A stretch of 64,000 nucleotides of DNA, from the IMG/VR virus record IMGVR_UViG_3300048839_000196, positions 9,883-73,882 of that record. One strand, written 5' to 3'. Below, piece by piece: positions 2,151 through 39,737 of this stretch. The position numbers were made by a program, and so were the translations under genes. The first letter of the stretch is position 1. Every line of letters starts with the position of its first letter. The DNA comes from a virus. Under the pieces are notes generated by a model. The model was not told the origin of the DNA and did no database searches. It saw only the letters and a program-made list of their open reading frames with translations.

Positions 2151-5100
2151 TTAATCACCTTTCTCTGCTTCTCGCAACTTCTTACGGAACCCGTCGCGCC
2201 CTCCGGATGAAACGATCGCCATGATCTTCTGGCGGTACGTCTTGCCATCGGAAGCCTTTCGATCAAGCTGACCTGAGCGCTGCATTTCAAGGGCTACGTT
2301 TACCATTTGTGAGTTAATATCCTGCTCGCGCAGAAGTTTCTCCCTTCGGATAACCTTAGCTGCTCTTGTCAGGTACTCGATCTCTTGGTCAGTCCAAGTC
2401 GGAGGAACAAGCGGAGCCTTAGCGCCGACGTCTGTCATAGACATAAAGTTATACATATCCTGTCGCTCATTCTGACTCAGGTTGGGCTTGTATGCGATCA
2501 GGTTTATTCTGCCCTGATCCCACATCCACTCAGTAAAGGTCTTATCCTCTTTGTCTTTGTCGGCGGATTTATTGAAGTCATCCCATGACTTTCCCCATCC
2601 GTACGCAAACTTTAGCGGATATAGTGTCCTTGTGTACGACTCAATAATATGTTCCATGTGCGTAGGAGATATGCTCAGTCCGGTAGCTGCGTACAACGAC
2701 GGCGTCAGATCTTTGTAGAACTGAAGCGTACGCTTGTTTGCCTGTGCGTACATTCGTGTATCTTCTCGGCTAAAGAGAATCTGCCTGCCCATCCAGTCCC
2801 GGTTAACAATAACCTCGGCGAAAGGACGCATCAAGGTAGGCACTGCATTTGTGATCTCACCACTGACAAATCCGATCGGATCGAGCGAAGTGAAGAATGC
2901 GCTCTTCACATCACTGGTCACGCTAAGCAGCGAGCGCTTGCCTAGACTTGCATCTACTACTCCATCAGCCACCAGACCAACAACTCGAAGCGCTCCGTAC
3001 GGCCTCGGGATTAACACAGGATCATCCACGTCAAACGGGTTCGGAATAGCTAGGTAAAACTGTCGCATGAATGCAGAGTTCATATAGCGATCGAGCCCGT
3101 GTTGCATAGTGATCTCGCCCTTCTCTTTGGGCTCTTCGTCATCATCTCCAGTGGCATATAGTGCATGAAGCATAACCCTGAAGGCAGTAGATCCCATGCC
3201 GTACAAGGCAAGCATCCTCCGGCCAGCAGGATTGGATAGTTGCTTAACCAGCTTTCGCCCTGACTGAAGACCCGCGTTCAAGAAGAGGTACAAGCCGGAG
3301 ATAAACCTACCTGCACTACCCCTAAAGAACTGCCCTTTCTTCTCGAAGTTCAACGTGATGTTCTTGGCGATAGCTGCTGCGCGAATGGGATCTACGCCAA
3401 GATCACGCATAGATGCGTAGGCGGCAAGGCGGGACACGTTCTCGAACCTAGCTGACAGACCCATCATCATTTCGATCATCGCATTCTTTGAGGTAGCCAG
3501 ATCTCTTGGAAGCCCAGATGCGGCCACCCGCTCTGCGTCACGGATGCGCTCATTTACTTTACCGGCGATATCGGTGAAGATGCCTGAGCTATCAAAGTTC
3601 CAGCCCATTGACGCACCTATTTGTAGGTACTCTGCGTAGTACCTATCCATATCTGAATGCACGCGCTTGCTTGCTATGAACGGGGTGATCTGCTGAGCAG
3701 CAGCTTCTCGCCAGCGCTTTCTCCAAGCCTTCTTCAGCTTCGTGTTGTTGATCTGCAAGAGATCATTCTCTACGCGGATATTAATCGAGCTTTCTTGTAT
3801 GTCACGCAGGAAGTTATTTAGAATAAATGTTGGAGAAAGCGAAGTAATACCGATGCGCATGACTCCAAGTATAGCGGAGTACCACTTCATGAACGTACTC
3901 ATTTCTCCTTCCACGTCTGGCGAACGAAGCATCGCCAACATCTGATCGCCCGGGTTGGAGAAGTAGATGTACTTCACCTTACCGCCTTCGTAAAACGGCA
4001 CAGAGTTCTCAAGGATCTCTTTTGGTAGCAGGCTTTGCGCGCCAACTATGTTGCCATACTTATCCATCTTGGGTACGTTCCTAGCAGAGAATACCCGAAT
4101 GCGATCAGTTGCCCCGTGTTGACGTGCAAGCTCAGCGAACCTACGCAGTGCATCCTGCCGGTGCTTCTGCCGGGTGGCTGAGGCGAGTCTTGCGAACGCC
4201 AGCTCTAGTGGTCGCACTACATCCTCGGCCTGCATATTCAGCAACTTGTGCCTAGTCTTTTGATCATACGGCTTTGACAAGCCTTCAATGCCATTCAGGT
4301 TTACAATGCGCTCGCCATTTGTGATCCCAAGTTCGTGATTCACAGCATCCTCCGAGTACATCATTGGCACATAGTACTTCCACTGTATAGTGGATTCATC
4401 ACTGGTGCCCTTGACTAAGTGATCATAGCGCTTTTGATCTATGCGACCGGCGGCCATGAGTGCGTCAAGGTATGGCGTCAGCATCTTGTCGCGGAACTCC
4501 TCATAGAATTGCATATACTTATTGAGTTCCGGGTTCGTGGGTAGTGGCTGACCGGGTTGAATAACTGGGAATGATTGCCCAGATATCCTACTCAAGAACT
4601 CAGCCTGTCGGTCAAGTGCCTTTATGTACGCATCGTTCATTTCAGCTATACGCTGTTGAAGATCATTAAACTTGGCGATAAGCCTAGCTAGGTTTGGATC
4701 GACTGAAGCCTGCTGATTGGCCACCTGCCAGAACTGAGCAGTACCTATTCCGGTAGTTTGTAATGAACTTATACCTTGCTGTGCCGATGCCATTAAGCGC
4801 TCTATGTCTGAGAATATATCCTTCTGATATTTCTCAAGTAGATCTAGCTTCCTAAGCAACCTCTCTGGCAGGTGTAGCGCCAGAAGAAACTCATTGAATT
4901 TATTCACACCGCCAAGTTGCTTTGTGACGCGTCCAACGAATGACTTATCCTTGGATGACTTACTACCGTTGTCACCCCAGAACCAGAGCGTGTGCGCCTG
5001 AAGTTCGTAGATAGATGCAGAGCTGTAAAGCTGCATAGCATCGTATGCATTGAGCGTCCCGGGTAGAAGTACCCCGATCTGCTTTTCTATATCCCGCTGA

Positions 5101-8100: not shown

Positions 8101-11100
8101 AACTTTTCATCGGACATCAATTTATCCCAAGCCTCATCCTTATGTACGAGATAGTAATTCTTGGCCATCGACATCGCATATCCATACACATCTGGATTTA
8201 TGTTTATGGTGCCAAATCCAGTCCGGCTCGGAGGCTTTCTAAATGCCCCTCGCCATGAACTATCATCTTCTTCTTGGAAGGTAACTCGGAACCTATCCTC
8301 AATAACATTTTCAGAGCGCACGATTAATTCGTCATTGTATAGGCGCACTATCTCTGAATCCGTACCAAGCGCAGCTCTCAGTCCGATAGAATTACCTCTG
8401 TCTAATCCTCGCGCAATCCTCGGCAGCGATTCCTTGCTTATTAAATCTTGATATGGCACTTCATATCTCCACTTCCCATCAACTCCCTTCTCCCATCCAG
8501 TTTGATTCCATATAGCTCGTCTTGATTTCTCGTACTCATCGCCAGATTTTTCGGCCAACTTCTTGGCGAACTCCAAGTTCTCTAGTATATCCGCCCTTAA
8601 GTCGGCGCGTTCGCCAACTATTTGCTTATACACCTTAAGCTTATCTTCTTTAGCTGCGTCAATACCTTCTTTCTCGACAGCCCCTACATTGGCCTCCGTA
8701 CTTGCAAACACCCCTCTCCTACCTTCAGCCGCCCGCCCAAACATCTGCATGGCCTGCTGCACGGCTTGACGGTCACCATACTGAAGACCTTTCTGCATGG
8801 TATTGAAAAGTGCTACCGCATCTCCAGATGTGGTAAGCCGGATCACCAACTTATTCTCTCCAATGATTGCAGCGATAAAGTCATTGATCGCCTTCTCTAT
8901 ACGGCCAAGCGCGGTCTTATCTTTAACCTCGGCTAGTCCTTGAGAAACAACGGCGCCAAGTTCGGCAAGGTATTCTTCGCTCTGTACGTCTTGTCGATCC
9001 TTGTATTGAGCAACAAAGAGATCTAGGTATTCGCCAACAGTTATCGTCCTGCCGTCCTTGAGTTTCACTGGCGTGCGCTGATTGACGTGCGGCTTTATCT
9101 TCTGCACAAGCGCATCTACCTCTTCTGGGCGCTGCGTGGCTGCGTGTTCTATGATAACGTGGAAGCCTTCATGTAATGCAGAGTCAGATGTTGCAGCGCC
9201 CCTATTTAGCATGATGATCTTCGACTTCCCTTTGCCGCCACTAGCGTACACAGCCCGGCTTCCGAGTACATTATCGGCACCCTCTTTGCCAAGCGTCTGC
9301 TCCAGCTTCGGCCTTGAAGACTCATCTACCACGAGCACCGGCACGCCAAGTCCTTTAAGCGCATCGGCTACGCGGTATGCAGACGAAAGAACCGGGTCAT
9401 TGTTTAGCTCGCCCATGTCCATGGCCTGCACATTCTGTACGGTGCGCCCATCAGTAAGTCCGAAGTCGCCCTTGTCTTTGGCCTGCATCCGGCCTATGAG
9501 GTCCGTCTCTGCGTCGCGGCGCTCCTGCTCAAGCCTAGCCCTTGTTTCTGGCGTGATACCCTGATCAGCCAATACCTCATCCAAGTACTCCACCCGCATC
9601 ACGCTCTCGCGTATGTCGTTAGCTGCTGCTTTCTCTTCTGTTAGGAATGCGACAACCTCCTCGCCACGGGTCACAGCTTGACGGTATTCAGGGCTTTCTT
9701 GTCCGAATTGCGCCTCTACTTTATCAAGGTGTGCATCGTATGCAACCTTCACCCCTTCGGCGTCGTCTGTTTCAGACACCGGGATCTGGGTTGCAATCAT
9801 CTTCGCTTCGTCGGAGTACTGCCTGCCGGTAGGCTGAGCTACCTCCTGCTGCTCTTGAATAGCATCGGCCTGCGCGTTCCTTCCTTGAGTAATACGACCG
9901 GCCTCTTCGCGCATGATATCTGCCCTAGCTTGATAGTCCTCTTGAGTTGGCGTAGTTCCTGCCATCATCTGGTCTGCGGCAGCACGACCTACTACCGGAG
10001 CTGCACCAATCGCTGCGCCAGTTGAAGTGACACCTCCACCGGCTATACCGCCAATGACCGCTGCATCGAGCACGCCTTCGAATATATTCCTGCCTTTGTC
10101 TATCGTAGCCTTGTCCACAATATTCTCCGCCAACTGAGCAAGCGCTTCACTGCCAGCTTCTTCAAGCGTGTTCCCTGCAATTCTGCCTAGCGTGTTTACA
10201 ATGGCAGCCTTTACACCTTTGACGGCGAAATCCCTGCCGTAGCGGGTGGCCATCTTCAGCGCCTCCTTGCCAATCTTACCACTCACTGCTTCCGTTATCC
10301 CCTCGAATGCTCCAGTGAGCACAGAGTTCAAGGCTTCCTTCGCTCCAATGTCATACCCTTCTTCGACGAGCTGTTCGTACTTCCCCTTACCGGCAGACAG
10401 ACCAACAGCAGTTGTCCCAACCCCGGGCACCATGGCCATCATCATATATGGCATAGATCCGATGGCTTCGATACTTGCCTTCCTGAATCCCTCGCTGATC
10501 CTACCTTGAGAAACTAGACTAGTGAATGTTTCATCTGCGTTCTCTAGCTTCGCACGAACTACTTTCGTGTTTGCGCGCTGACGATCCGCCCACTTATCAA
10601 GACCTCCAAATTCATCAGAGATGTATTCTGCTGCTTTGAGCATAGCGGGGCCGGGTGTCCAGTCCAACCCTCGCTCAACATTCCTTCTAATTGTTTCTTT
10701 TTTCTCGTCATGTTGCGCTTGAGTTATCTCCCCGCGCTTCAACCTCCTGTCTTCTTTCATCATCGCCACATCCGTCATTAAGGCGTAGTACACATCACGG
10801 ATGTATTCTGGCGCTTCAAGTGCATTAGCTACTGCTTCTTTCCCAACAGCTCCAATCATTGCTGAGCCTTGCTCTAGCACAGACTTTTCACTCAGCGGCC
10901 TAGCTCTTTCCTCCGCTTTCATTTTTTCCACAACGGGCGACGACTCCTCTACCCGGACGCCCGGATATGGAGACACCTGTCTGCGTGCGTTACGCGCCTG
11001 CCTTACCTCTTCGATTGCCTGATCGGCGCCTTTTATACCGAACTCAGAGAGCGTGGGGTTGCTCTTGACGCCTGCTGACGGGGTGGAGGGTGTGCCCGGT

Positions 11101-27761: not shown

Positions 27762-28252
27762 AGCACACTTTCTGAGGCAAAGAAGAGCGCCTGCTTTGAT
27801 AATAACTTATTTAGGTGGTCGAGCGCAGTAGGCTTGAGTTCATCGCTCAAACTATCGACGTACCTGCGCGCCTCGATCTCAGAGATGGCGAGCTTGCCGG
27901 ACACATTTGACAAGACATAGATCAAGTGCTGATTCATGTCTTCTTCAGATGCGATTTCTTCCTCTCCCTCCAGTAGGAAGCCCATCGCCCTGCTAACAGC
28001 CATTGTTTCTGCGGCTGAGTAGGCGGAGGTGTCCTTGATGCCTGAAATTTCCTCCTTAAAGTACACCATCTTGTGCCCTGTCGCGGAGAACAAAACTCCA
28101 TCACCGGGGTCAGTGATTTTGACCTTGGCTTTGGCTAAGACATAATCACCAATGATCTGGACTTCGGTATCTATGGCGTAGTACGCATTTAGGCTGGCGC
28201 ACAATTCATGGAATCGCTTACGGCGATCTGCGAACGTTTCTCTTTTTAACAT
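27758..28252 (-). CDS. Rad52/Sak-like single-strand annealing protein
   Basis: ATGH...AETMAVSRAMGFL...IASEEDM; paired with YqaJ; start reassigned to ATG 28252. Confidence 0.6.
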   Translation of the reverse strand: MLKRETFADRRKRFHELCASLNAYYAIDTEVQIIGDYVLAKAKVKITDPGDGVLFSATGHKMVYFKEEISGIKDTSAYSAAETMAVSRAMGFLLEGEEEIASEEDMNQHLIYVLSNVSGKLAISEIEARRYVDSLSDELKPTALDHLNKLLSKQALFFASESVL

Positions 28253-28517
28253 GGTATTGTTTTTGCTTTGACATGGCGAGATAAATGATGGACTTCGTAA
28301 GGTCATGGAGCAGGCATCCTTGCCAGTCCACCTGTCTAACCTCCGTGGTTGTTTCACTGGAGAATAAACCTTTTGGTGGGGTCGTTTGAATCCCTGTCTT
28401 CACAACAAACGCATCCAGAATGGATGGGTATGTCGTAATTAGGAGTTTCTTCGCATCCTCAATTGGGATGCGAAGATCTCCAAGTACAATAGTGTTATGC
28501 CTGAGCTCAGCCTTCAT
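28218..28517 (-). CDS. Hypothetical protein
   Basis: First ORF after the promoter at 28533. Confidence 0.5.
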   Translation of the reverse strand: MKAELRHNTIVLGDLRIPIEDAKKLLITTYPSILDAFVVKTGIQTTPPKGLFSSETTTEVRQVDWQGCLLHDLTKSIIYLAMSKQKQYHVKKRNVRRSP

Positions 28518-28532
28518 CTGATTTATTTCTTA

Positions 28533-28563
28533 CAAAGGTAGTGTTTTGTGCCGAGAAAAGCAA
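28533..28563 (-). promoter_or_regulatory. Bacteroidota sigma70-type promoter
   Basis: TTG-N20-TACCTTTG. Confidence 0.75.
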
Positions 28564-28584
28564 GAGGTGCGTGTATTTTTTTAC

Positions 28585-28647
28585 GCATAACTTTAGCTTT
28601 GTGTATATGCGCCTATGCGGCGCACATCGCAAATGCTGGAGTTAGCA
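28585..28647 (+). mobile_element. attC-like recombination hairpin (site 1)
   Basis: GCATAAC...GTTAGCA, a 63-bp imperfect palindrome with an extrahelical base (AACTTTAGC-TTTG / CAAA-T-GCTGGAGTT). Confidence 0.65.
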
Positions 28648-29102
28648 GCAACCTTAGCGGACACTGTCTAACCATTCAAAATCTTCTTTTGTACCATATT
28701 CCCAATCGTGGGACAAAACCTTCGGTTTGTAATTCAAATCAAGCAGACACATCACAAGGTTTAAAACAAAACCTTCTGCGTATTGACCACTTACACCAAA
28801 TGAGCCACTTACTCTTATGTAATGTGGGTTATCAAAATTCACATCACAAACAGGTAATCCAGCTAAACCTTGTTTATTAAACTTTGACAAATTAACCATT
28901 GCCGTATCAAAATCATTTTGACTAATCGGCTTTTCTTTACTTGCTATATAAAAAGAATATCCCATAATAAAAGGCTGCTGCCAACACCTGCTTTGCAAAA
29001 AAGGGGCAGACGGATGTAAGTCAGCGTTTGTTTATAAATCAACTTTTGTAGTTATGCCAAGCGAAGTGCAATAAATCCCCTTCTTCGCAAAGCATTGTAA
29101 CG
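28642..29102. mobile_element. Integron-type gene cassette
   Basis: Lower GC than the flanks, a single ORF, bounded by G|TT crossover points with cross-complementary R boxes. Confidence 0.6.
28654..28965 (-). CDS. Cassette-encoded hypothetical protein (103 aa, MGYSFYIASK...)
   Basis: AT-rich ORF that exactly fills the space between the two attC-like sites. Confidence 0.65.
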   Translation of the reverse strand: MGYSFYIASKEKPISQNDFDTAMVNLSKFNKQGLAGLPVCDVNFDNPHYIRVSGSFGVSGQYAEGFVLNLVMCLLDLNYKPKVLSHDWEYGTKEDFEWLDSVR

Positions 29103-29108
29103 TTATGC
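28979..29108 (+). mobile_element. attC-like recombination hairpin (site 2)
   Basis: TGCCAAC...GTTATGC, 130 bp, with arms TGCTTTGCAAAAAAGGGG / CCCCTTCTTCGCAAAGCA. Confidence 0.65.
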
Positions 29109-29176
29109 GAAAATAATTTGCATTAACCAGTTAAAAAATCAGCCACAATCTCTGGTGACTAAGTATAGATTCATGG

Positions 29177-30322
29177 CTATTTATTTATCTCGTCATCAAA
29201 TAATCCCTCCATACTCTCAAGAATGCGTGCATCCCGGCTGCCAGCTCTGCCAGTAACGATCTCATTGTACCCGTAAAGCGCCTTCGCCGTTTCATTGAAG
29301 GCAAAGTCCTTTACGAATGATGCGCGCTGTGTCACCGGGTCAACGTAGAACTCGCGTAAAGTTTTGATGTCATCGTGCCCGGTGTATAAGGCAGCTATAG
29401 TCTCAAGACTCATACCCATTGCTGCGTAGTAAGTTGCGCCTGACCTGCGCAGTAGGTGAGCAGCACGCGAGTATCTAGGGATGCTTATGTAAGAAGGCTC
29501 CCCCTTGAATGATACTGTCTTGATCGTTGCATCCGCACCAAAAGCAGTAGCCAGTGCTTTCCTAACGTCATGCACAAAGCGCCTTGACCTCGGATCGCCA
29601 GACACACAGGGCGTATCGAACTTCAGGAGGTACTTTGACTCCAAGTTCGGATCGCTCGGATCGTGCCCGAAGTATTTGAAGATGCGCGTCATCAGAGCGA
29701 AAGGCACAGGTGTGCTCATCCGTTTCTTTGTCTTTTCTGTAATGCGGGTGATCCAGTACGTCCTCCCATCTTTGGATAACTCTACATCGCCGACCCTCAA
29801 GCTGACAAGATCATTGACCCGCCAGCAGGTTATGAGTGCCAGCTTGGTGTTGATACTGGCTGAGCTGGTGTTTGGGAGTTGCAGGATTTTTTCTACCTGC
29901 TCTACACTCAAGGCAACCACCCGATCTTTCGGACGGATCTTTGTCTTAAAGAAATCGGGTACAGGTATCTGAAGTTTCACCCGCTTGAAGTTTCGCCAGT
30001 TCAGGAACACAACCAAGTTGGTTCTATGTTGATTGATTGTGCTGTGTTGCAGCCCCTCAATTGTATCAAGGAAATCCCGGAAGCCAAGAAAGAAATCTTC
30101 GAGCCACTGTCCCTTATCAAGGCGCTCTTGTGGTGAGCGGTTTACGGTGAAATCATAGTCGAACAGATCGAAATCTTCGATAAGTTCAGCCTGCATGTAC
30201 GCCAGCATCTTGTGGTATGTGCTTTGCCTATTGGTAGCTGTACTCGACGTGACGCGATTGCCGGTTTTTTGGTCGTCGCTCCACGCTTTCATTTGTTCAA
30301 GGAACATAAGTTTACTATTCAT
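29177..30322 (-). CDS. Tyrosine recombinase / integrase
   Basis: Catalytic set: R (TCWRVNDL), K (EKT), HxxR (HLLRRS), H (TGH), Y (EFY); N-terminal SAM-like region. Confidence 0.85.
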   Translation of the reverse strand: MNSKLMFLEQMKAWSDDQKTGNRVTSSTATNRQSTYHKMLAYMQAELIEDFDLFDYDFTVNRSPQERLDKGQWLEDFFLGFRDFLDTIEGLQHSTINQHRTNLVVFLNWRNFKRVKLQIPVPDFFKTKIRPKDRVVALSVEQVEKILQLPNTSSASINTKLALITCWRVNDLVSLRVGDVELSKDGRTYWITRITEKTKKRMSTPVPFALMTRIFKYFGHDPSDPNLESKYLLKFDTPCVSGDPRSRRFVHDVRKALATAFGADATIKTVSFKGEPSYISIPRYSRAAHLLRRSGATYYAAMGMSLETIAALYTGHDDIKTLREFYVDPVTQRASFVKDFAFNETAKALYGYNEIVTGRAGSRDARILESMEGLFDDEINK

Positions 30323-30464
30323 AGTTGCGTTTGTTTTTTACGAACATCACTGCGAAGGCAGTGAACAGCCCGATGATTGGTAAGAACGCCCAGAATTGTT
30401 CGGGCGATTCGAGATATATCGACGCCATGACGGCGACGAAAATTGAGGTTAATAGCTTGCCCAT
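30315..30464 (-). CDS. Small two-TM membrane protein (49 aa, not in ORF track)
   Basis: Manual translation MGKLLTSIFVAVMASIYLESPEQFWAFLPIIGLFTAFAVMFVKNKRNYE. Confidence 0.5.
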   Translation of the reverse strand: MGKLLTSIFVAVMASIYLESPEQFWAFLPIIGLFTAFAVMFVKNKRNYE

Positions 30465-30502
30465 CTTTAAAGTATTATGTGATCTTGAATAACCATATTA
30501 GC

Positions 30503-31252
30503 TTAGGATTTATTTTCGCGCATGAATAGGTTTGCATAAGCCATGATCGCAAGCGGCCAACTAAGCGAGAAGATGACGTGCGAAATCATCTCCGACTTAA
30601 TTACGCCCGTGACGCACAGATCGGTGATGATCTGTACGACGAAGAACGCCGTAAGCCAGATAGACCGAAGCGAAATCTCGTCTCCTCCAATAGTAATTTT
30701 CCGGTCATTAAAGTTGGCGCCGAAGAATACGCCGACCATCTCAAAGACCAGCGCTGCGGCCATGACTAGCCAGAACACAGCGCTCGCAATAGTGATGATG
30801 ATACCCATGTCTTTGAAGACGTCAATCGACAGCATCGCATACATGAACGCTTGGAATGCAAGCGCCAGTATAGCAAATACCATGTGTACAGTTGCGCTGC
30901 GCAGGAACACCATCCCGAAGTGTTCGCTGCTGATGTTCGGGAATGTAGCCGAAGTGGCAGGTTGCGTAGGCTGCTGGCTCTGAGCCTGTGCCTTTTGCGA
31001 GCTGTCTTCCATGATCCCTAACTGTATCAGTTTGGCCCGGAGTTCTGGTCGGGACAAAGCGATCAGGTCAGCGGCTTTTGCACGTGTGTCCGGGTGCTGA
31101 GCGGCGGCGGCGACCTGATTGAGCAAAGCCTCGGCCTGCTCTATCGAGATCATTCCGGCCGTAGTTCCTCCTCGGTTCTTCCGAGAGAGGAAAGTGTCGG
31201 CACTGTCGTAGGTAGTGCCGAGATGGTCCGTGAGTAATTGGAGGTTGATCAT
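30503..31252 (-). CDS. Membrane protein with soluble N-domain and 4 TM helices
   Basis: Four hydrophobic segments in the C-terminal half. Confidence 0.65.
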   Translation of the reverse strand: MINLQLLTDHLGTTYDSADTFLSRKNRGGTTAGMISIEQAEALLNQVAAAAQHPDTRAKAADLIALSRPELRAKLIQLGIMEDSSQKAQAQSQQPTQPATSATFPNISSEHFGMVFLRSATVHMVFAILALAFQAFMYAMLSIDVFKDMGIIITIASAVFWLVMAAALVFEMVGVFFGANFNDRKITIGGDEISLRSIWLTAFFVVQIITDLCVTGVIKSEMISHVIFSLSWPLAIMAYANLFMRENKS

Positions 31253-31564: not shown

Positions 31565-32239
31565 TTATAAATCAAGGAACTCCGACTCTTTATACACCTT
31601 AAATCCGGGGCGCATGACAGCAACCGTGGGATTATAGCAGCCGCTCGTATTTTGCTCTTCCCGATGGATCACTTCAAAACCAAACGGAAGTTTTGATGCT
31701 TCAACTCCGTAGTTGACCGAAGATGTCCCGATGTCGCAGATCGCAATTTCGTCGCCGGGGACGAGCACAAAATGCTGGCATGTTCCCCACTTCTCTTGCG
31801 TTGTGAACTCCGTAGTCATCGCGCCTTGGTGTACGCCTCTCCTGCCCCTGATTTGCTTTTCAAATCTCTTGGGATAGTGCACAACTACCCTATCGTCATA
31901 AGCCCTGAGCTCGTTTCCATGTTTCTCGCGATAGCTCTGAGTGACAGTGGTCCGCATCCAGCCTCTAGCCTCAGCAGGATTGTCACTGCTCGGCCATTTA
32001 GACGGGTACATGAAGTCAAACTCGGCTCTTGATTCTCGCTTAAACAGGGCCAGATTATCTTGCTGGCTGATTGGCATGTTGTCGTCAGGAGAAAGCGCCT
32101 CAATGAACTCGATGTTTGAAATGTTCTCATCTCTAGTTCTCGATGGAGAAACCACCCGGTTCTCAACGTACTTGCCATTGATTCTGAGCTGTGTCCCGCC
32201 GAACGCAGGTTTCCAAGTGCCGAAATCATAGATTTTCAT
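31565..32239 (-). CDS. Hypothetical protein
   Basis: 224-aa ORF followed by hairpin GCCCCG...CGGGGC near 31534-31557. Confidence 0.6.
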   Translation of the reverse strand: MKIYDFGTWKPAFGGTQLRINGKYVENRVVSPSRTRDENISNIEFIEALSPDDNMPISQQDNLALFKRESRAEFDFMYPSKWPSSDNPAEARGWMRTTVTQSYREKHGNELRAYDDRVVVHYPKRFEKQIRGRRGVHQGAMTTEFTTQEKWGTCQHFVLVPGDEIAICDIGTSSVNYGVEASKLPFGFEVIHREEQNTSGCYNPTVAVMRPGFKVYKESEFLDL

Positions 32240-32257
32240 ATTGATTGTTTTTTTGGT

Positions 32258-32623
32258 TTACAGATAGTTTACAATTTTCGTGGTCACGAACCCGTCCTCC
32301 GGGTCCATACTAAAGAGAACCCCTCTGACGAAAATCTCATCGTCATTCTTACAGAACGCCTCACCGAAACCCTGCTCGAAGTGGCGAAGCCTGAGCTTTG
32401 CTACCCTTAGCTGGTTTTCAAGGCGACGAACTTCCTGCTCGGCCTCGATTAATATTTCAACATCTACTGGATTATCGAACCCAACATATCCGCCCTCAGT
32501 GATATGCCCTTCGTCGAGTGGTTCAATGCAGTGAGCCATGTTTACTGACAACTGCCAGTCTGAATCGGCGAGAGCAAGGCAAACATCGCCCGTTTCCGGG
32601 TTGAAAAATAAGTCTTTCTTCAT
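32258..32623 (-). CDS. Hypothetical protein
   Basis: Early-region ORF. Confidence 0.55.
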   Translation of the reverse strand: MKKDLFFNPETGDVCLALADSDWQLSVNMAHCIEPLDEGHITEGGYVGFDNPVDVEILIEAEQEVRRLENQLRVAKLRLRHFEQGFGEAFCKNDDEIFVRGVLFSMDPEDGFVTTKIVNYL

Positions 32624-32642
32624 AGCTATTCAGGTTTTGCGT

Positions 32643-33014
32643 TTACAATTTATCCCCAAGTTTTGGCTCGCCCACTCCGGGTGGACTGACAAGGACATCC
32701 AAATAGCCATCGCCTCCGGACTGCCCAAGATTCATTGTCTTGGCGATTACTCCTTTACGAAGGAGAGCATGCTCTTCTTCCGGCAGAAAGTCGATCAGTT
32801 GCAGGATGAACTGCTTGAGATCGGCCACCGGGATATGGATTTCGCAGCTTGCCGGGCCACGGCTATTGATCGGAGTGATCTTTACATACAGTAGCGCGCC
32901 TTCGTACCCGCCTATAAATTCTGCTGTGTCAATCAGGTCAACGGCTTTGGAGGTCGCCCATCCTGAGCGGCCCCAATATGAGGCGGGGTGGGCGAATGGA
33001 ATTACTCTTCTCAT
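32643..33014 (-). CDS. Hypothetical protein
   Basis: Early-region ORF. Confidence 0.55.
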   Translation of the reverse strand: MRRVIPFAHPASYWGRSGWATSKAVDLIDTAEFIGGYEGALLYVKITPINSRGPASCEIHIPVADLKQFILQLIDFLPEEEHALLRKGVIAKTMNLGQSGGDGYLDVLVSPPGVGEPKLGDKL

Positions 33015-37901: not shown

Positions 37902-38028
37902 TTTTACTGGTTATTAGTTGTTTGTTATTGCGTGTATATACATTGATTGTTGTTGCGGGAATATAGTAAAAAAAAATGCCGTAACTTTTAATAAGACACG
38001 GCAATTTTTAGCGGATATTCTCAGCGAG

Positions 38029-38256
38029 TTATTTTAACATCTGTTTTAACTCGCTTTTTATCCGTTTTGCAGTTTCGCCTTTCCATGTTTGTGCGTTGGC
38101 AAGAAAGTACAAAACAATACTTTTGCCGGAGTCTTCGTAAAAATTGTCAGTGATTTTTTGGAGGGATTGCATTGCATCCAAATAAGGTACCGCCCCGAAA
38201 TAGGGTTTTTCCCAATCGGCTTTAATTTCGCGCGCAATTTCGTTTAACGTTCTCAT
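38029..38256 (-). CDS. Hypothetical phage protein
   Basis: EIAREIKADW.KPYFGAVPYLDAM...YFLANAQTWKGE, a recurrent early-protein pattern. Confidence 0.65.
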   Translation of the reverse strand: MRTLNEIAREIKADWEKPYFGAVPYLDAMQSLQKITDNFYEDSGKSIVLYFLANAQTWKGETAKRIKSELKQMLK

Positions 38257-38277
38257 TGTTTTAGTTTTTGTTAGTTG

Positions 38278-38538
38278 TTAAATATCCAAAGTGTAAAACG
38301 TGGTATATTTTCCCGCTTCGCCGTTACAATTGTAAAACTCAAACGAGTTAACAATTTGATCGAATGGCGTGAAATAGTGGTTATCTACCTCAGCGCCAAT
38401 ACTCCACGGTCCGAATGGCTTAAAATTTACGGGGCAAAGATGGATTTTTGTACCGCTGTTATATAGTTTCTTTGCAGTAGGTTTAGATACTTGTTTCCAA
38501 TATCTGCCTGCACTGTCTTTGAACCTTAAATTTCTCAT
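38278..38538 (-). CDS. Hypothetical protein
   Basis: First ORF after the outermost early promoter. Confidence 0.6.
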   Translation of the reverse strand: MRNLRFKDSAGRYWKQVSKPTAKKLYNSGTKIHLCPVNFKPFGPWSIGAEVDNHYFTPFDQIVNSFEFYNCNGEAGKYTTFYTLDI

Positions 38539-38554
38539 TGTTTTGGCTGTTTTG

Positions 38555-38632
38555 TTATTGAATACTGCAAAGCTATGTATTTATTTAATACGGAGCAAGT
38601 AATTGGATAAATTTATTTTTGTTGGTGGTGTA
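38555..38632 (-). repeat. 78-bp promoter-containing direct repeat, copy 2
   Basis: 71/78 identical to 37824..37901; contains TTG-N20-TAGCTTTG. Confidence 0.85.
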
Positions 38633-39117
38633 ATGCTTTTGTTTATTGGTATAACTAAACTTTCGTTGCTGTGACTAAAGGTTTAGTTGTGTAACTAAAG
38701 TTTTAGTTATACTCCATAGGTGCACCCTACCATAAGTATTTTTAATTCCTACTAAAAAGATAGGAATATCTTTTTTTATTACCTTTATATAACTTCTCCA
38801 CAAAGTTAGTCTATGTACAAACCAATGAACACGCGCAAAAAGAACTGTTTAACTGAATTGTATTGCAGTGGAGTATATTTTTCTCATCGTCGCAAGGCCA
38901 AAAAACGGAAATTTGTAGGTGTGCCCGGACGAGAATCCGCAAAGCCCAACGCGAGCGACACCCGCCCGATCCATAGATCCGCTCCCACTCCCCATTCGAT
39001 GTAACCCCTGCAAGAATCTTCAAAAATCTCCCCAACAAAATTCTTCGCCAAAAACAAAAGCGGCGCCGTCACATCCCTGTAACAAGCGCCGCCCTAACGA
39101 CCAACCTAAATTCCAAC

Positions 39118-39249
39118 CTAATTACCAGCTATCCTCCACCGAGTCGGCGGATCATACTCGTGATCTACGATTATCTGCGGTGGCCGTGCTGACATCCAGA
39201 TCTTGAGCATGAGGGTGTAGCACACCACTGCAAATAAAAATGAGATCAT
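39118..39249 (-). CDS. Small membrane-anchored protein (43 aa, not in track)
   Basis: MISFLFAVVCYTLMLKIWMS...; its ATGA overlaps the upstream stop. Confidence 0.4.
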   Translation of the reverse strand: MISFLFAVVCYTLMLKIWMSARPPQIIVDHEYDPPTRWRIAGN

Positions 39250-39737
39250 AAGCGAATAATTTTTGCGTGAGCTAATCTAATGAATGCGTTCTCTCTTATT
39301 GCAGACCCGCCATTAATGGTAGCCTGCGTCCTTGTTACTTCAGTTCGGTAGTCCATCTCGGCGCCCGTCTTGTAGTCGTAAGCGGTAAAGATCGCTAAGC
39401 AATCAGACATCTCGAAGTACACAATGATGAAGTAATTAATCTGATGCGCCTTGGCGTGGGCCACGCCACCTTTGATCTTCTCAGCGGTGATCAGATATTC
39501 ATCATACGCCTTCCCGTTGTACACCACCCGGCACTGCTCGTCTATCCCTGCGTTCCGGGACTTGGTTTCAAAGATGCCGGTGATCACGCCATTGACTACC
39601 ACATACCCGTCATACGGGGAAGAGGAGTAGTCAGGGAACCAAACAAAGCGCGGATGGCTCGCTTCAAATCTAGTCAGTGCTTCCTTTGCCCGTACTGCCG
39701 CATCGCGGCCTTTTCTAGTGTTGACCGCAAGCGCCAT
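39246..39737 (-). CDS. PD-(D/E)XK-like nuclease
   Basis: SPYDG...FETKSR motif. Confidence 0.55.
   Translation of the reverse strand: MALAVNTRKGRDAAVRAKEALTRFEASHPRFVWFPDYSSSPYDGYVVVNGVITGIFETKSRNAGIDEQCRVVYNGKAYDEYLITAEKIKGGVAHAKAHQINYFIIVYFEMSDCLAIFTAYDYKTGAEMDYRTEVTRTQATINGGSAIRENAFIRLAHAKIIRL

Follow-up and report, generated by a model that had tools for sequence, protein, structure and literature searches.

How did a short, low-GC segment edged by attC-like hairpins come to lie beside an integrase gene in a phage genome, and which recombination system handles it? The segment is part of a 64,000-nt stretch (hereafter the window; positions 9,883 to 73,882 of IMG/VR record IMGVR_UViG_3300048839_000196, a 73.9-kb record rated complete), which is a phage genome encoding a large terminase, a portal protein, a primase-helicase, and an endolysin. 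An earlier reading of the same letters (the original prediction) had described it as an integron-type attC cassette inserted into the phage. We conclude that window positions 28641–29102 are likely a mobile cassette of a family of hairpin sites from Bacteroidota, working in the manner of integron cassettes, and that this cassette most probably belongs to the recombinase-associated array system of Bacteroidota. The features on which the argument turns are the following (window coordinates).

28641..29102, minus strand: the mobile cassette, 461 bp, delimited by the ends of homology and by low GC content
28965..28654, minus strand: the cargo gene, a conserved open reading frame (ORF) of 103 amino acids
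28972–29113, minus strand: site 2, the attC-like hairpin of 142 nt that travels with the cargo, recognized by covariance model R1, inverted repeat, and fold
28641..28653, minus strand: the cassette-end R box, with its AAC end on the minus strand, complementary to the GTT box at 28973–28985
28585..28641, no strand assigned: site 1, a putative landing site, with an imperfect 49-nt hairpin and its far box CGCATAAC at 28585–28592
30322..29177, minus strand: the phage tyrosine integrase (PF00589, 8e-11; phrog_1, 2.7e-16)

The clearest evidence for mobility comes from the same block in foreign surroundings. Copies that are 92–98% identical occur in at least three unrelated contigs. A 64-kb metagenome contig with phage-like small ORFs and two PHROG matches (L005) is 92% identical to the window over 28640–29106 and unrelated to it outside. 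A 35.9-kb freshwater contig (run X3) matches 28641–29105 with 10 differences and has other flanks; among viral-metagenome contigs (run X4), one matches 28641–29107, and another, with a similar site end, stops at 29104. All homology ends at most 1–5 nt from the predicted G|TT points (between 28641 and 28642, and between 29102 and 29103), and the bases common beyond the breakpoints are the GTT/AAC triplet and one to four further letters. The cassette is thereby supported as a discrete unit that moved whole. Its ends are ambiguous inside the shared GTT/AAC triplets, and they correspond to 28642–29102 for a G|TT cut on the plus strand or to 28641–29101 for an AAC|G cut on the minus strand. The original prediction had deduced recombination at G|TT and had named breakpoints away from that point as grounds for refutation; in the foreign contigs, homology stops within 1–5 nt of both predicted points.

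The internal layout described by the original prediction is likewise in place. Two inverted-repeat pairs flank an AT-rich ORF (28965..28654), which is real, and the GC content of the cassette is 0.34–0.36, against approximately 0.50 in the phage genes on either side. The outer pair joins 28577–28595 with 29098–29116 (19 nt, 84%) and includes the exact CGCATAAC/GTTATGCG match that had been claimed between the left box of site 1 and the right box of site 2; the inner pair joins 28632–28655 with 28971–28994 (24 nt, 79%) and includes the claimed match at 13 of 15 positions. A further inverted repeat, 28989–29006 with 29077–29094 (18 nt, 89%), leaves a 70-nt loop between its arms. Read on the minus strand, site 2 thus consists of a target box ending in AAC (29114–29102), a 7-nt spacer, a stem arm (29094–29077), the 70-nt variable loop, the second stem arm (29006–28989), a 3-nt spacer, and the GTT box (28985–28973). 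Homologous loci show the same unit order on the gene sense strand: a box ending in TAAC, G and a spacer, a stem arm, a loop of approximately 70 nt, the second stem arm, a short spacer, GTTA with approximately 10 nt, the ORF, and a box that is complementary to those 10 nt and ends in TAAC.

To describe this family, we built covariance model R1 from 15 sites. It finds five further sites in phage arrays, all on the cargo strand, and a single strong match in the window, at 28972–29113 on the minus strand only (71.3 bits, E 5e-13, filters off); Rfam has no match at the locus. The stem is 13–18 bp long and contains conserved G.T wobbles. In phage-type sites, stem covariation is 0.427, compared to 0.150 in shuffles (none of the 500 reaches the observed value) and at most 0.19 in slid controls, and 11 of 13 stem pairs show compensatory changes. 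Among 27 bacterial sites outside the training set (from three genomes), pairing extends to 93% of cells, and covariation reaches 0.764 versus 0.198 in shuffles. The AAC and GTT triplets are invariant in all 19 phage-type sites with letters and in all 27 bacterial sites, whereas the RYYY/RRRY consensus is loosely met (the window reads TGCCAAC / GTTAGCA). In place of the extrahelical L-box bases of an attC, two conserved G.T wobbles and some unpaired stem cells were observed. Because two stem positions are such wobbles, the model strand folds better than its complement, which holds in 18 of the 20 phage-type sites and 22 of the 27 bacterial sites (40/47 in all); the single-stranded DNA fold of site 2 has z-scores of -2.75 on the minus and -1.88 on the plus strand. 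Two simpler procedures were set aside. A stem scanner (12/14 pairs) returned equally many matches in shuffled sequence and was therefore replaced by the covariance model, and a consensus fold from a MAFFT alignment alone gave a partial stem, with registers that differ between sites.

The two ends of the cassette also depend on each other. In the window, the boxes at 28641–28653 and 28973–28985 are complementary at 8 of 10 variable positions as well as at the triplet, and homologues keep the same arrangement with co-varying letters. When the 10 nt after GTT are compared to the next downstream 10 nt before AAC, boxes of the same cassette in phage-type sites mostly match at 8–9 of 10 positions (mean 7.4, some of the lower scores stemming from boxes that the script located 3 nt off), whereas for the pair of boxes at a single genomic site the mean is 3.2/10. 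Three bacterial arrays repeat this pattern, with a same-cassette mean of 7.4/10 and a mean of 3.3/10 for other box combinations (at least 7 in 2.3%); across the phage-type and bacterial data, the within-site match is 3.2–4.0/10. Shuffled boxes (variable part, best match in the same search window) reach a mean of 5.5/10, and at least 8 in 3.7%. The swapped R-box halves of the original prediction are therefore borne out, as the boxes pair between the ends of a cassette and not within one genomic site. Judged from these pairings, the swapped boxes are the apparent trace of a circle integrated by exchange at the AAC/GTT core.

Two other parses of the unit were rejected. The downstream hairpins are all different, whereas the upstream hairpin accompanies the ORF or is homologous in the window, L005, the X3 and X4 contigs, L003, and L004; a classical-polarity parse, in which the downstream hairpin would belong to the ORF, was discarded for this reason. 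An element with terminal inverted repeats bounded by the two boxes was discarded as well, the mobile block reaching approximately 125 nt past one box.

Sites of this family are not confined to the phage. R1 matches (E ≤ 1e-4) occur in 59 of the 151 sampled Bacteroidota genomes, are nearly all 142–146 nt long, and lie almost throughout in same-strand clusters with 1–8 kb spacing. One bacterial array (in genome G013) begins with a recombinase and continues with a whole Type I restriction-modification system and a site, a TauD-like and an unknown gene and a site, a major facilitator superfamily (MFS) transporter and a site, and a Barstar-like and an unknown gene and a site. HsdM, HsdS, and HsdR make up one cassette of this array (L077:2617-8642, on G013:C1), which follows the array recombinase and comes before the first R1 site, and the Barstar-like gene lies in the fourth cassette of L077. 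On the phage side, a 203-kb viral contig from IMG/VR, estimated to be 66% complete (G001), has two arrays with seven or more units apiece, and a phage-like contig from a Bacteroidota metagenome-assembled genome (MAG; contig L003) has at least four units in a row.

Phage-type and bacterial arrays differ in the direction of their cargo. The amino acids encoded in ORFs on the same strand as the site model, or on the opposite strand, are distributed as follows.

G071, bacterial array: 4245 opposite, 0 same
G126 (L078), bacterial array: 4152 opposite, 708 same
G126 (L079), bacterial array: 1447 opposite, 657 same
G013, bacterial array: 3280 opposite, 0 same
G001 array A, viral contig (IMG/VR): 1394 same, 0 opposite
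G001 array B, viral contig (IMG/VR): 597 same, 100 opposite
L003, phage-like contig binned in a MAG: 297 same, 0 opposite
G003:C18, short contig of small co-directional ORFs, binned in a MAG: 625 same, 0 opposite
Polaribacter phage P12002L, isolated phage: 2758 same, 0 opposite

Bacterial arrays keep the classical order of gene and then site, whereas in phage-type loci the site precedes the gene. In each of the seven phage-type loci scanned, the cargo is sense relative to the model strand, and the window and L005 share this phage polarity; the antisense orientation relative to classical attC polarity, noted by the original prediction for the window, accordingly extends to every phage-type array scanned. 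Such an arrangement would put a stable, G.U-containing hairpin into the mRNA leader. In the 203-kb viral contig, several cargo ORFs (L002:3207-3260 and 3600-3660; L035:10650-10720) start within the variable loop and extend across both the second stem arm and the GTT box, and the recombination site therefore overlaps coding sequence. In P12002L (L080), which is an isolated, lytic phage, R1-type sites of 20–38 bits lie on the minus strand at 38025-39253, 32213-32933, and 29998-30963, flank Mom-like and methyltransferase genes, and are all on the gene strand; they outnumber the two sites of this phage tested in a 2023 paper.

Which enzyme acts on these sites? In G013, G126, G047, G071, G082, and G003, the bacterial R1 arrays lie 0.5–13 kb from a tyrosine recombinase of one subtype. 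The array recombinases match the integron-integrase model TIGR02249 in two pieces, of approximately 120 and 100 bits, with approximately 17–27 residues where the model has approximately 60, and this gap is located at the IntI-specific insertion. In the full-length recombinase of G003, the stretch from GKKDR to HTLRHSFAT is approximately 65 amino acids, which is the length in Xer proteins (compared to IntI1 and XerD). By these measures, the array recombinases classify as Xer-like proteins without the IntI insertion. G003, a Bacteroidia MAG, additionally contains approximately nine copies of an approximately 59-amino-acid remnant of the 3' end of the array recombinase gene (C31:25159-25335, C14:30919-31041, C55:119510-119644, C28:3-161, C8:1-162, C4:104-286, and others; L058:5130-5340). 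Several of the remnants are at contig ends, several occur on the strand opposite to R1 sites, 1–3 kb upstream of them, and the one full-length copy in G003 (C9) runs into a contig end; the remnants look like repeated junctions of the recombinase end with a first cassette.

These neighbours bear on the reading that a host IntI recombines the attC of the element, which would then be a classical integron cassette. That reading would account for the attC architecture (AAC/GTT cores, unpaired spacers, stem, and variable loop), the G|TT boundaries, and the swapped R boxes. True integron integrases (TIGR02249, 425–430 bits) are also encoded in two of the five array-bearing genomes, on contigs different from those of the arrays (G013:C5:61111-62052 and G047:C10:300-1241). 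There are no R1 sites beside these two genes, but both genes are at contig ends and the absence is uninformative. TIGR02249 matches neither the phage nor the 203-kb viral contig, the arrays adjoin Xer-like recombinases that lack the IntI insertion, and the sites conform loosely to the RYYY/RRRY consensus.

A published experiment addresses the same point. In a study by Qi et al. (2023; PMC9892861), which described components of integrons in 21 phages, six attC sites from phages were assayed with IntI1, and five of them recombined; P12002L_attC1, which HattCI had called an attC, was the sole one of the six that IntI1 did not integrate. The primer sequence of P12002L_attC1 maps to 30006–30058 (minus strand) of P12002L and overlaps an R1 match with the family architecture (29998–30064). 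Sites of this family had therefore already been seen and called attC, and the sole published IntI test on a family member is negative. Since dependence on IntI was tested and not found, we do not consider the element a classical integron cassette, and recombination by a host IntI is an unlikely explanation. The term ‘integron-type’ in the original prediction holds for the cores, the fold, the G|TT ends, and the swapped boxes, and is not supported for dependence on IntI, with no IntI in the phage and P12002L_attC1 left unrecombined. The phage clusters of attC sites lacking integron integrases (CALINs) of that study resemble the loci described here in that attC-like sites flank small genes in both virulent and temperate phages. 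The study differs in treating the sites as IntI substrates, with no link to recombinase-associated arrays of Bacteroidota, no cassette mobility between contexts, and no inverted cargo polarity. Viewed as a CALIN, the window has a strong site of 71 bits and, 330 nt away, a weak one of 5.4 bits that matches in its boxes only.

The integrase gene beside the cassette offers another candidate. The phage integrase (30322..29177) could have captured the cassette itself, with site 1 and its boxes serving as its attP or as the equivalent of an attI. The gene ends 68 nt upstream of the outer box, so that the insertion lies just past the integrase stop codon, which is the usual place of an attP or attI; complementary boxes around a hairpin flank the target; and in G071 and G047, too, the model strand carries the recombinase gene, beside the last site. 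L005, however, has the same cassette and the same ends and no integrase-sized ORF within 5 kb, and cassettes also form arrays in the 203-kb viral contig, in which (at an estimated 66% completeness) no PF00589 gene was found. The integrase is 28% identical to an array recombinase, has one homologue among 5.8 billion protein clusters, and has its best NCBIfam match, at 43 bits against a cut-off of 220, to a XerA/integron-integrase model; on this evidence it is best classed as a generic tyrosine recombinase and not an IntI. A search for attB-like sequences with the site-1 region in 401 Bacteroidota genomes returned only chance-level matches of 19–32 nt. Capture by the phage integrase is thus rather improbable as an account of the whole locus. 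As the catalyst, we favour a host-encoded recombinase of the array type, because the adjoining integrase is not an IntI, is 28% identical to the array enzyme, and is near-unique, and because no tyrosine recombinase was found in the 203-kb contig, at its estimated 66% completeness; the phage integrase is a live alternative.

Site 1 itself is a partial match to what had been claimed. On the minus strand, its box (28592–28580) agrees with the phage-side box (29114–29102) at 8 of 10 positions and the triplet; CGCATAAC at 28585–28592 is complementary to the box at 29102–29109, and the match extends to 29114. By our own rough arithmetic, the chance of such a box match in random sequence is approximately 1e-3 to 1e-2. 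The hairpin has a fold z-score of -1.3 to -1.5 and is no stabler than shuffles, and the last site of array B in the 203-kb viral contig ends in plain sequence. The pairing of the boxes and the core thus stands from the proposal that the phage carries an attC landing site, and membership of the hairpin in the family does not; a palindromic landing site in the phage is plausible and is not required for insertion.

Several observations count against a mobile cassette of the Bacteroidota hairpin-site family, and are weighed here together. Site 1 scores 5.4 bits with R1 (E approximately 2) and falls outside the family model. The insertion target in L005 has no hairpin, so that insertion need not have been an ‘attC x attC’ event. 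Alignments fitted to R1 are biased towards the structure of R1. Neither the phage nor the 203-kb contig with two arrays encodes an array-type recombinase. Neither an excised circle nor an empty site nor a population variant turned up, the backbone-bearing runs having yielded only short contigs. Relatives of the phage that have this locus were not found when the integrase, exonuclease, and adjacent ORF served as queries in megablast (phages and E. coli genomes), in tblastn (phages), and in scans of viral contigs. Finally, an ORF in L002 is 84% identical to its copy in L003, yet has another upstream hairpin and other boxes, from which it follows that hairpin and cargo can be reassorted.

This reassortment would suit an ordinary moron, spread by homologous or illegitimate recombination at shared regulatory hairpins and with no site-specific step. 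In T4-type phages, promoter/stem-loop cassettes are a model for moron exchange; here, too, the hairpin is in the 5' leader of the gene, and short motifs are common to the hairpins of different cassettes. Recombination of that kind assigns no role to the co-varying complementarity between cassette ends, and the flanks of the window, L005, and the X3 and X4 contigs share only the AAC/GTT triplet and one to four bases. The same sites also occur in bacterial arrays beside a dedicated recombinase, and we find the moron explanation very improbable.

Still less credible, in our assessment, is a non-autonomous single-strand transposon of the IS200/IS605 type, inserted by an HUH transposase 3' of a TAAC-like target. 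The insertion does always fall just after (T/A)AAC, the element itself ends in TAAC, and its folding is strand-biased. The structure, however, is a single hairpin with an end-to-end stem and not two subterminal hairpins, the conserved neighbours are tyrosine recombinases, and the annotated array genes include none like TnpA, a result obtained with no genome-wide HUH search.

With a mobile cassette of the Bacteroidota hairpin-site family as the preferred reading, the locus can be explained by the following steps. The cassette consists of one folded recombination site and one small gene, and its end box is complementary to the box adjoining GTT. Excision as a circle would bring both boxes together and close a continuous structure of R stem, spacer, L stem, and loop. 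A tyrosine recombinase, most likely a host array-type Xer-like enzyme and possibly the phage's own integrase, would then exchange strands at AAC/GTT, joining the circle in its folded single-stranded form to a target with the same triplet. In the window, this target would have been 68 nt downstream of the phage integrase gene, and insertion would have split the R stem of the cassette across the two ends of the insert. Given its low GC content, the cassette may have arrived recently from a low-GC phage or bacterial pool.

The R1 family, as we propose it, shares with integron attC sites a circular cassette with one folded imperfect palindrome, strand-biased folding, AAC/GTT cores, unpaired spacers, a variable terminal loop, arrays of promoter-poor small genes, and a G|TT crossover that splits the R box between neighbouring cassettes. 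It differs from them in having no IntI present, in R stems of up to approximately 13 bp, apparently in G.T wobbles instead of the documented extrahelical bases, in its conserved Xer-like neighbour without the IntI insertion, and, in phages, in cargo that lies on the recombinogenic (‘bottom’-like) strand, behind the site.

On the bacterial side, the closest described system is rAID-1 (Ross et al. 2019; 10.1101/471110), defined by a 5' XerD-like recombinase followed by co-directional low-GC genes and a repeated intergenic element. Its authors required a recombinase at least 44% identical to B. fragilis BF9343_RS08045 and at least two downstream genes with a GC content of at most 41%, called the intergenic repeats ‘reminiscent of integrons’, and found rAID-1 in 226 of 423 genomes (10.1101/471110). 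The bacterial R1 arrays resemble rAID-1 in their XerD-like recombinase, their repeated intergenic element, their Barstar-like immunity gene cargo, and their similar prevalence (59/151 here versus 226/423). Two or more low-GC genes are present in the bacterial arrays L077, L075, and L078, and in arrays with the other rAID-1 features the R1 sites occupy the position of the intergenic repeats and may correspond to them. On this analysis, the bacterial R1 arrays are probably rAID-1 arrays, with the difference that those found here also hold a whole Type I restriction-modification system and transporters. The window differs more, being a single phage cassette with one gene, an inverted cargo, and an unrelated adjoining integrase, which, at 28% identity to an array recombinase, very probably lies below the rAID-1 recombinase threshold. 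According to a 2025 preprint (PMC12247911), the mechanism by which rAIDs are formed is still open.

The cargo protein belongs to a set of 54 homologous clusters (53–98% identity), all of which start with MGY and are approximately 102 amino acids long. AlphaFold2 predicts, with a pLDDT of 96.9, a small alpha/beta protein with a ferredoxin-like sandwich fold. Pfam, PHROG, NCBIfam, PDB, and Atlas provided no assignment, and structural comparison yielded no specific match (a Foldseek E of 0.011 and a VIA Z of 7.3 at best, the latter typical of common arrangements); CdiI-like and ZipA-like folds appeared at chance level and were dismissed. The protein was not found among 50,697 deposited phage records.

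Around the cassette, a Bacteroidota-type -7 promoter box, TACCTTTG, was noted by eye at 28537–28544 (minus strand), approximately 20 nt upstream of the start of ORF 28517..28218, and fits a Bacteroidota host. Short contigs from two wetland-metagenome runs (X1 and X2) match the phage backbone at window positions 28223–28463 with 0 and 4 differences, and the phage or a close relative was therefore present in those samples. These contigs, of 151 and 241 nt, come from the sole runs with phage backbone and do not reach the cassette, and the sequencing runs compared to the locus showed no joints. The sole phage relative found (L025) breaks off 215 nt upstream of the exonuclease gene, and relatives with the empty site, which the original prediction had proposed to look for, were absent from the results of the searches for phage relatives.

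The occurrence of attC-like sites in phages (Qi et al. 2023) and integron-like, recombinase-associated arrays in Bacteroidales (Ross et al. 2019) were already known and had been described separately. New here are one cassette in at least four contexts with base-level breakpoints, a structural site model that links phage and bacterial arrays, and a testable rule, according to which strands are exchanged at AAC|G on the better-folding strand and the halves of the R stem are swapped. We propose tentatively, with a little less than even confidence, that Bacteroidota phages keep arrays of their own on the rAID-like hairpin site of their hosts, with the cargo polarity systematically inverted and each gene thereby having the site in its 5' leader, and that both shuffle small genes by one recombination system, probably the Xer-like array recombinase of the host working on folded single strands. 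If this is true, genes for defence and counter-defence could pass directly from host arrays to phage genomes and back. The inverted polarity of phage cargo should bear on the expression of the cassettes and on which strand is single-stranded in phage replication. And should the host array recombinase prove to be the enzyme, phage genomes would share one pool of exchangeable genes with the immunity and defence arrays of their hosts.

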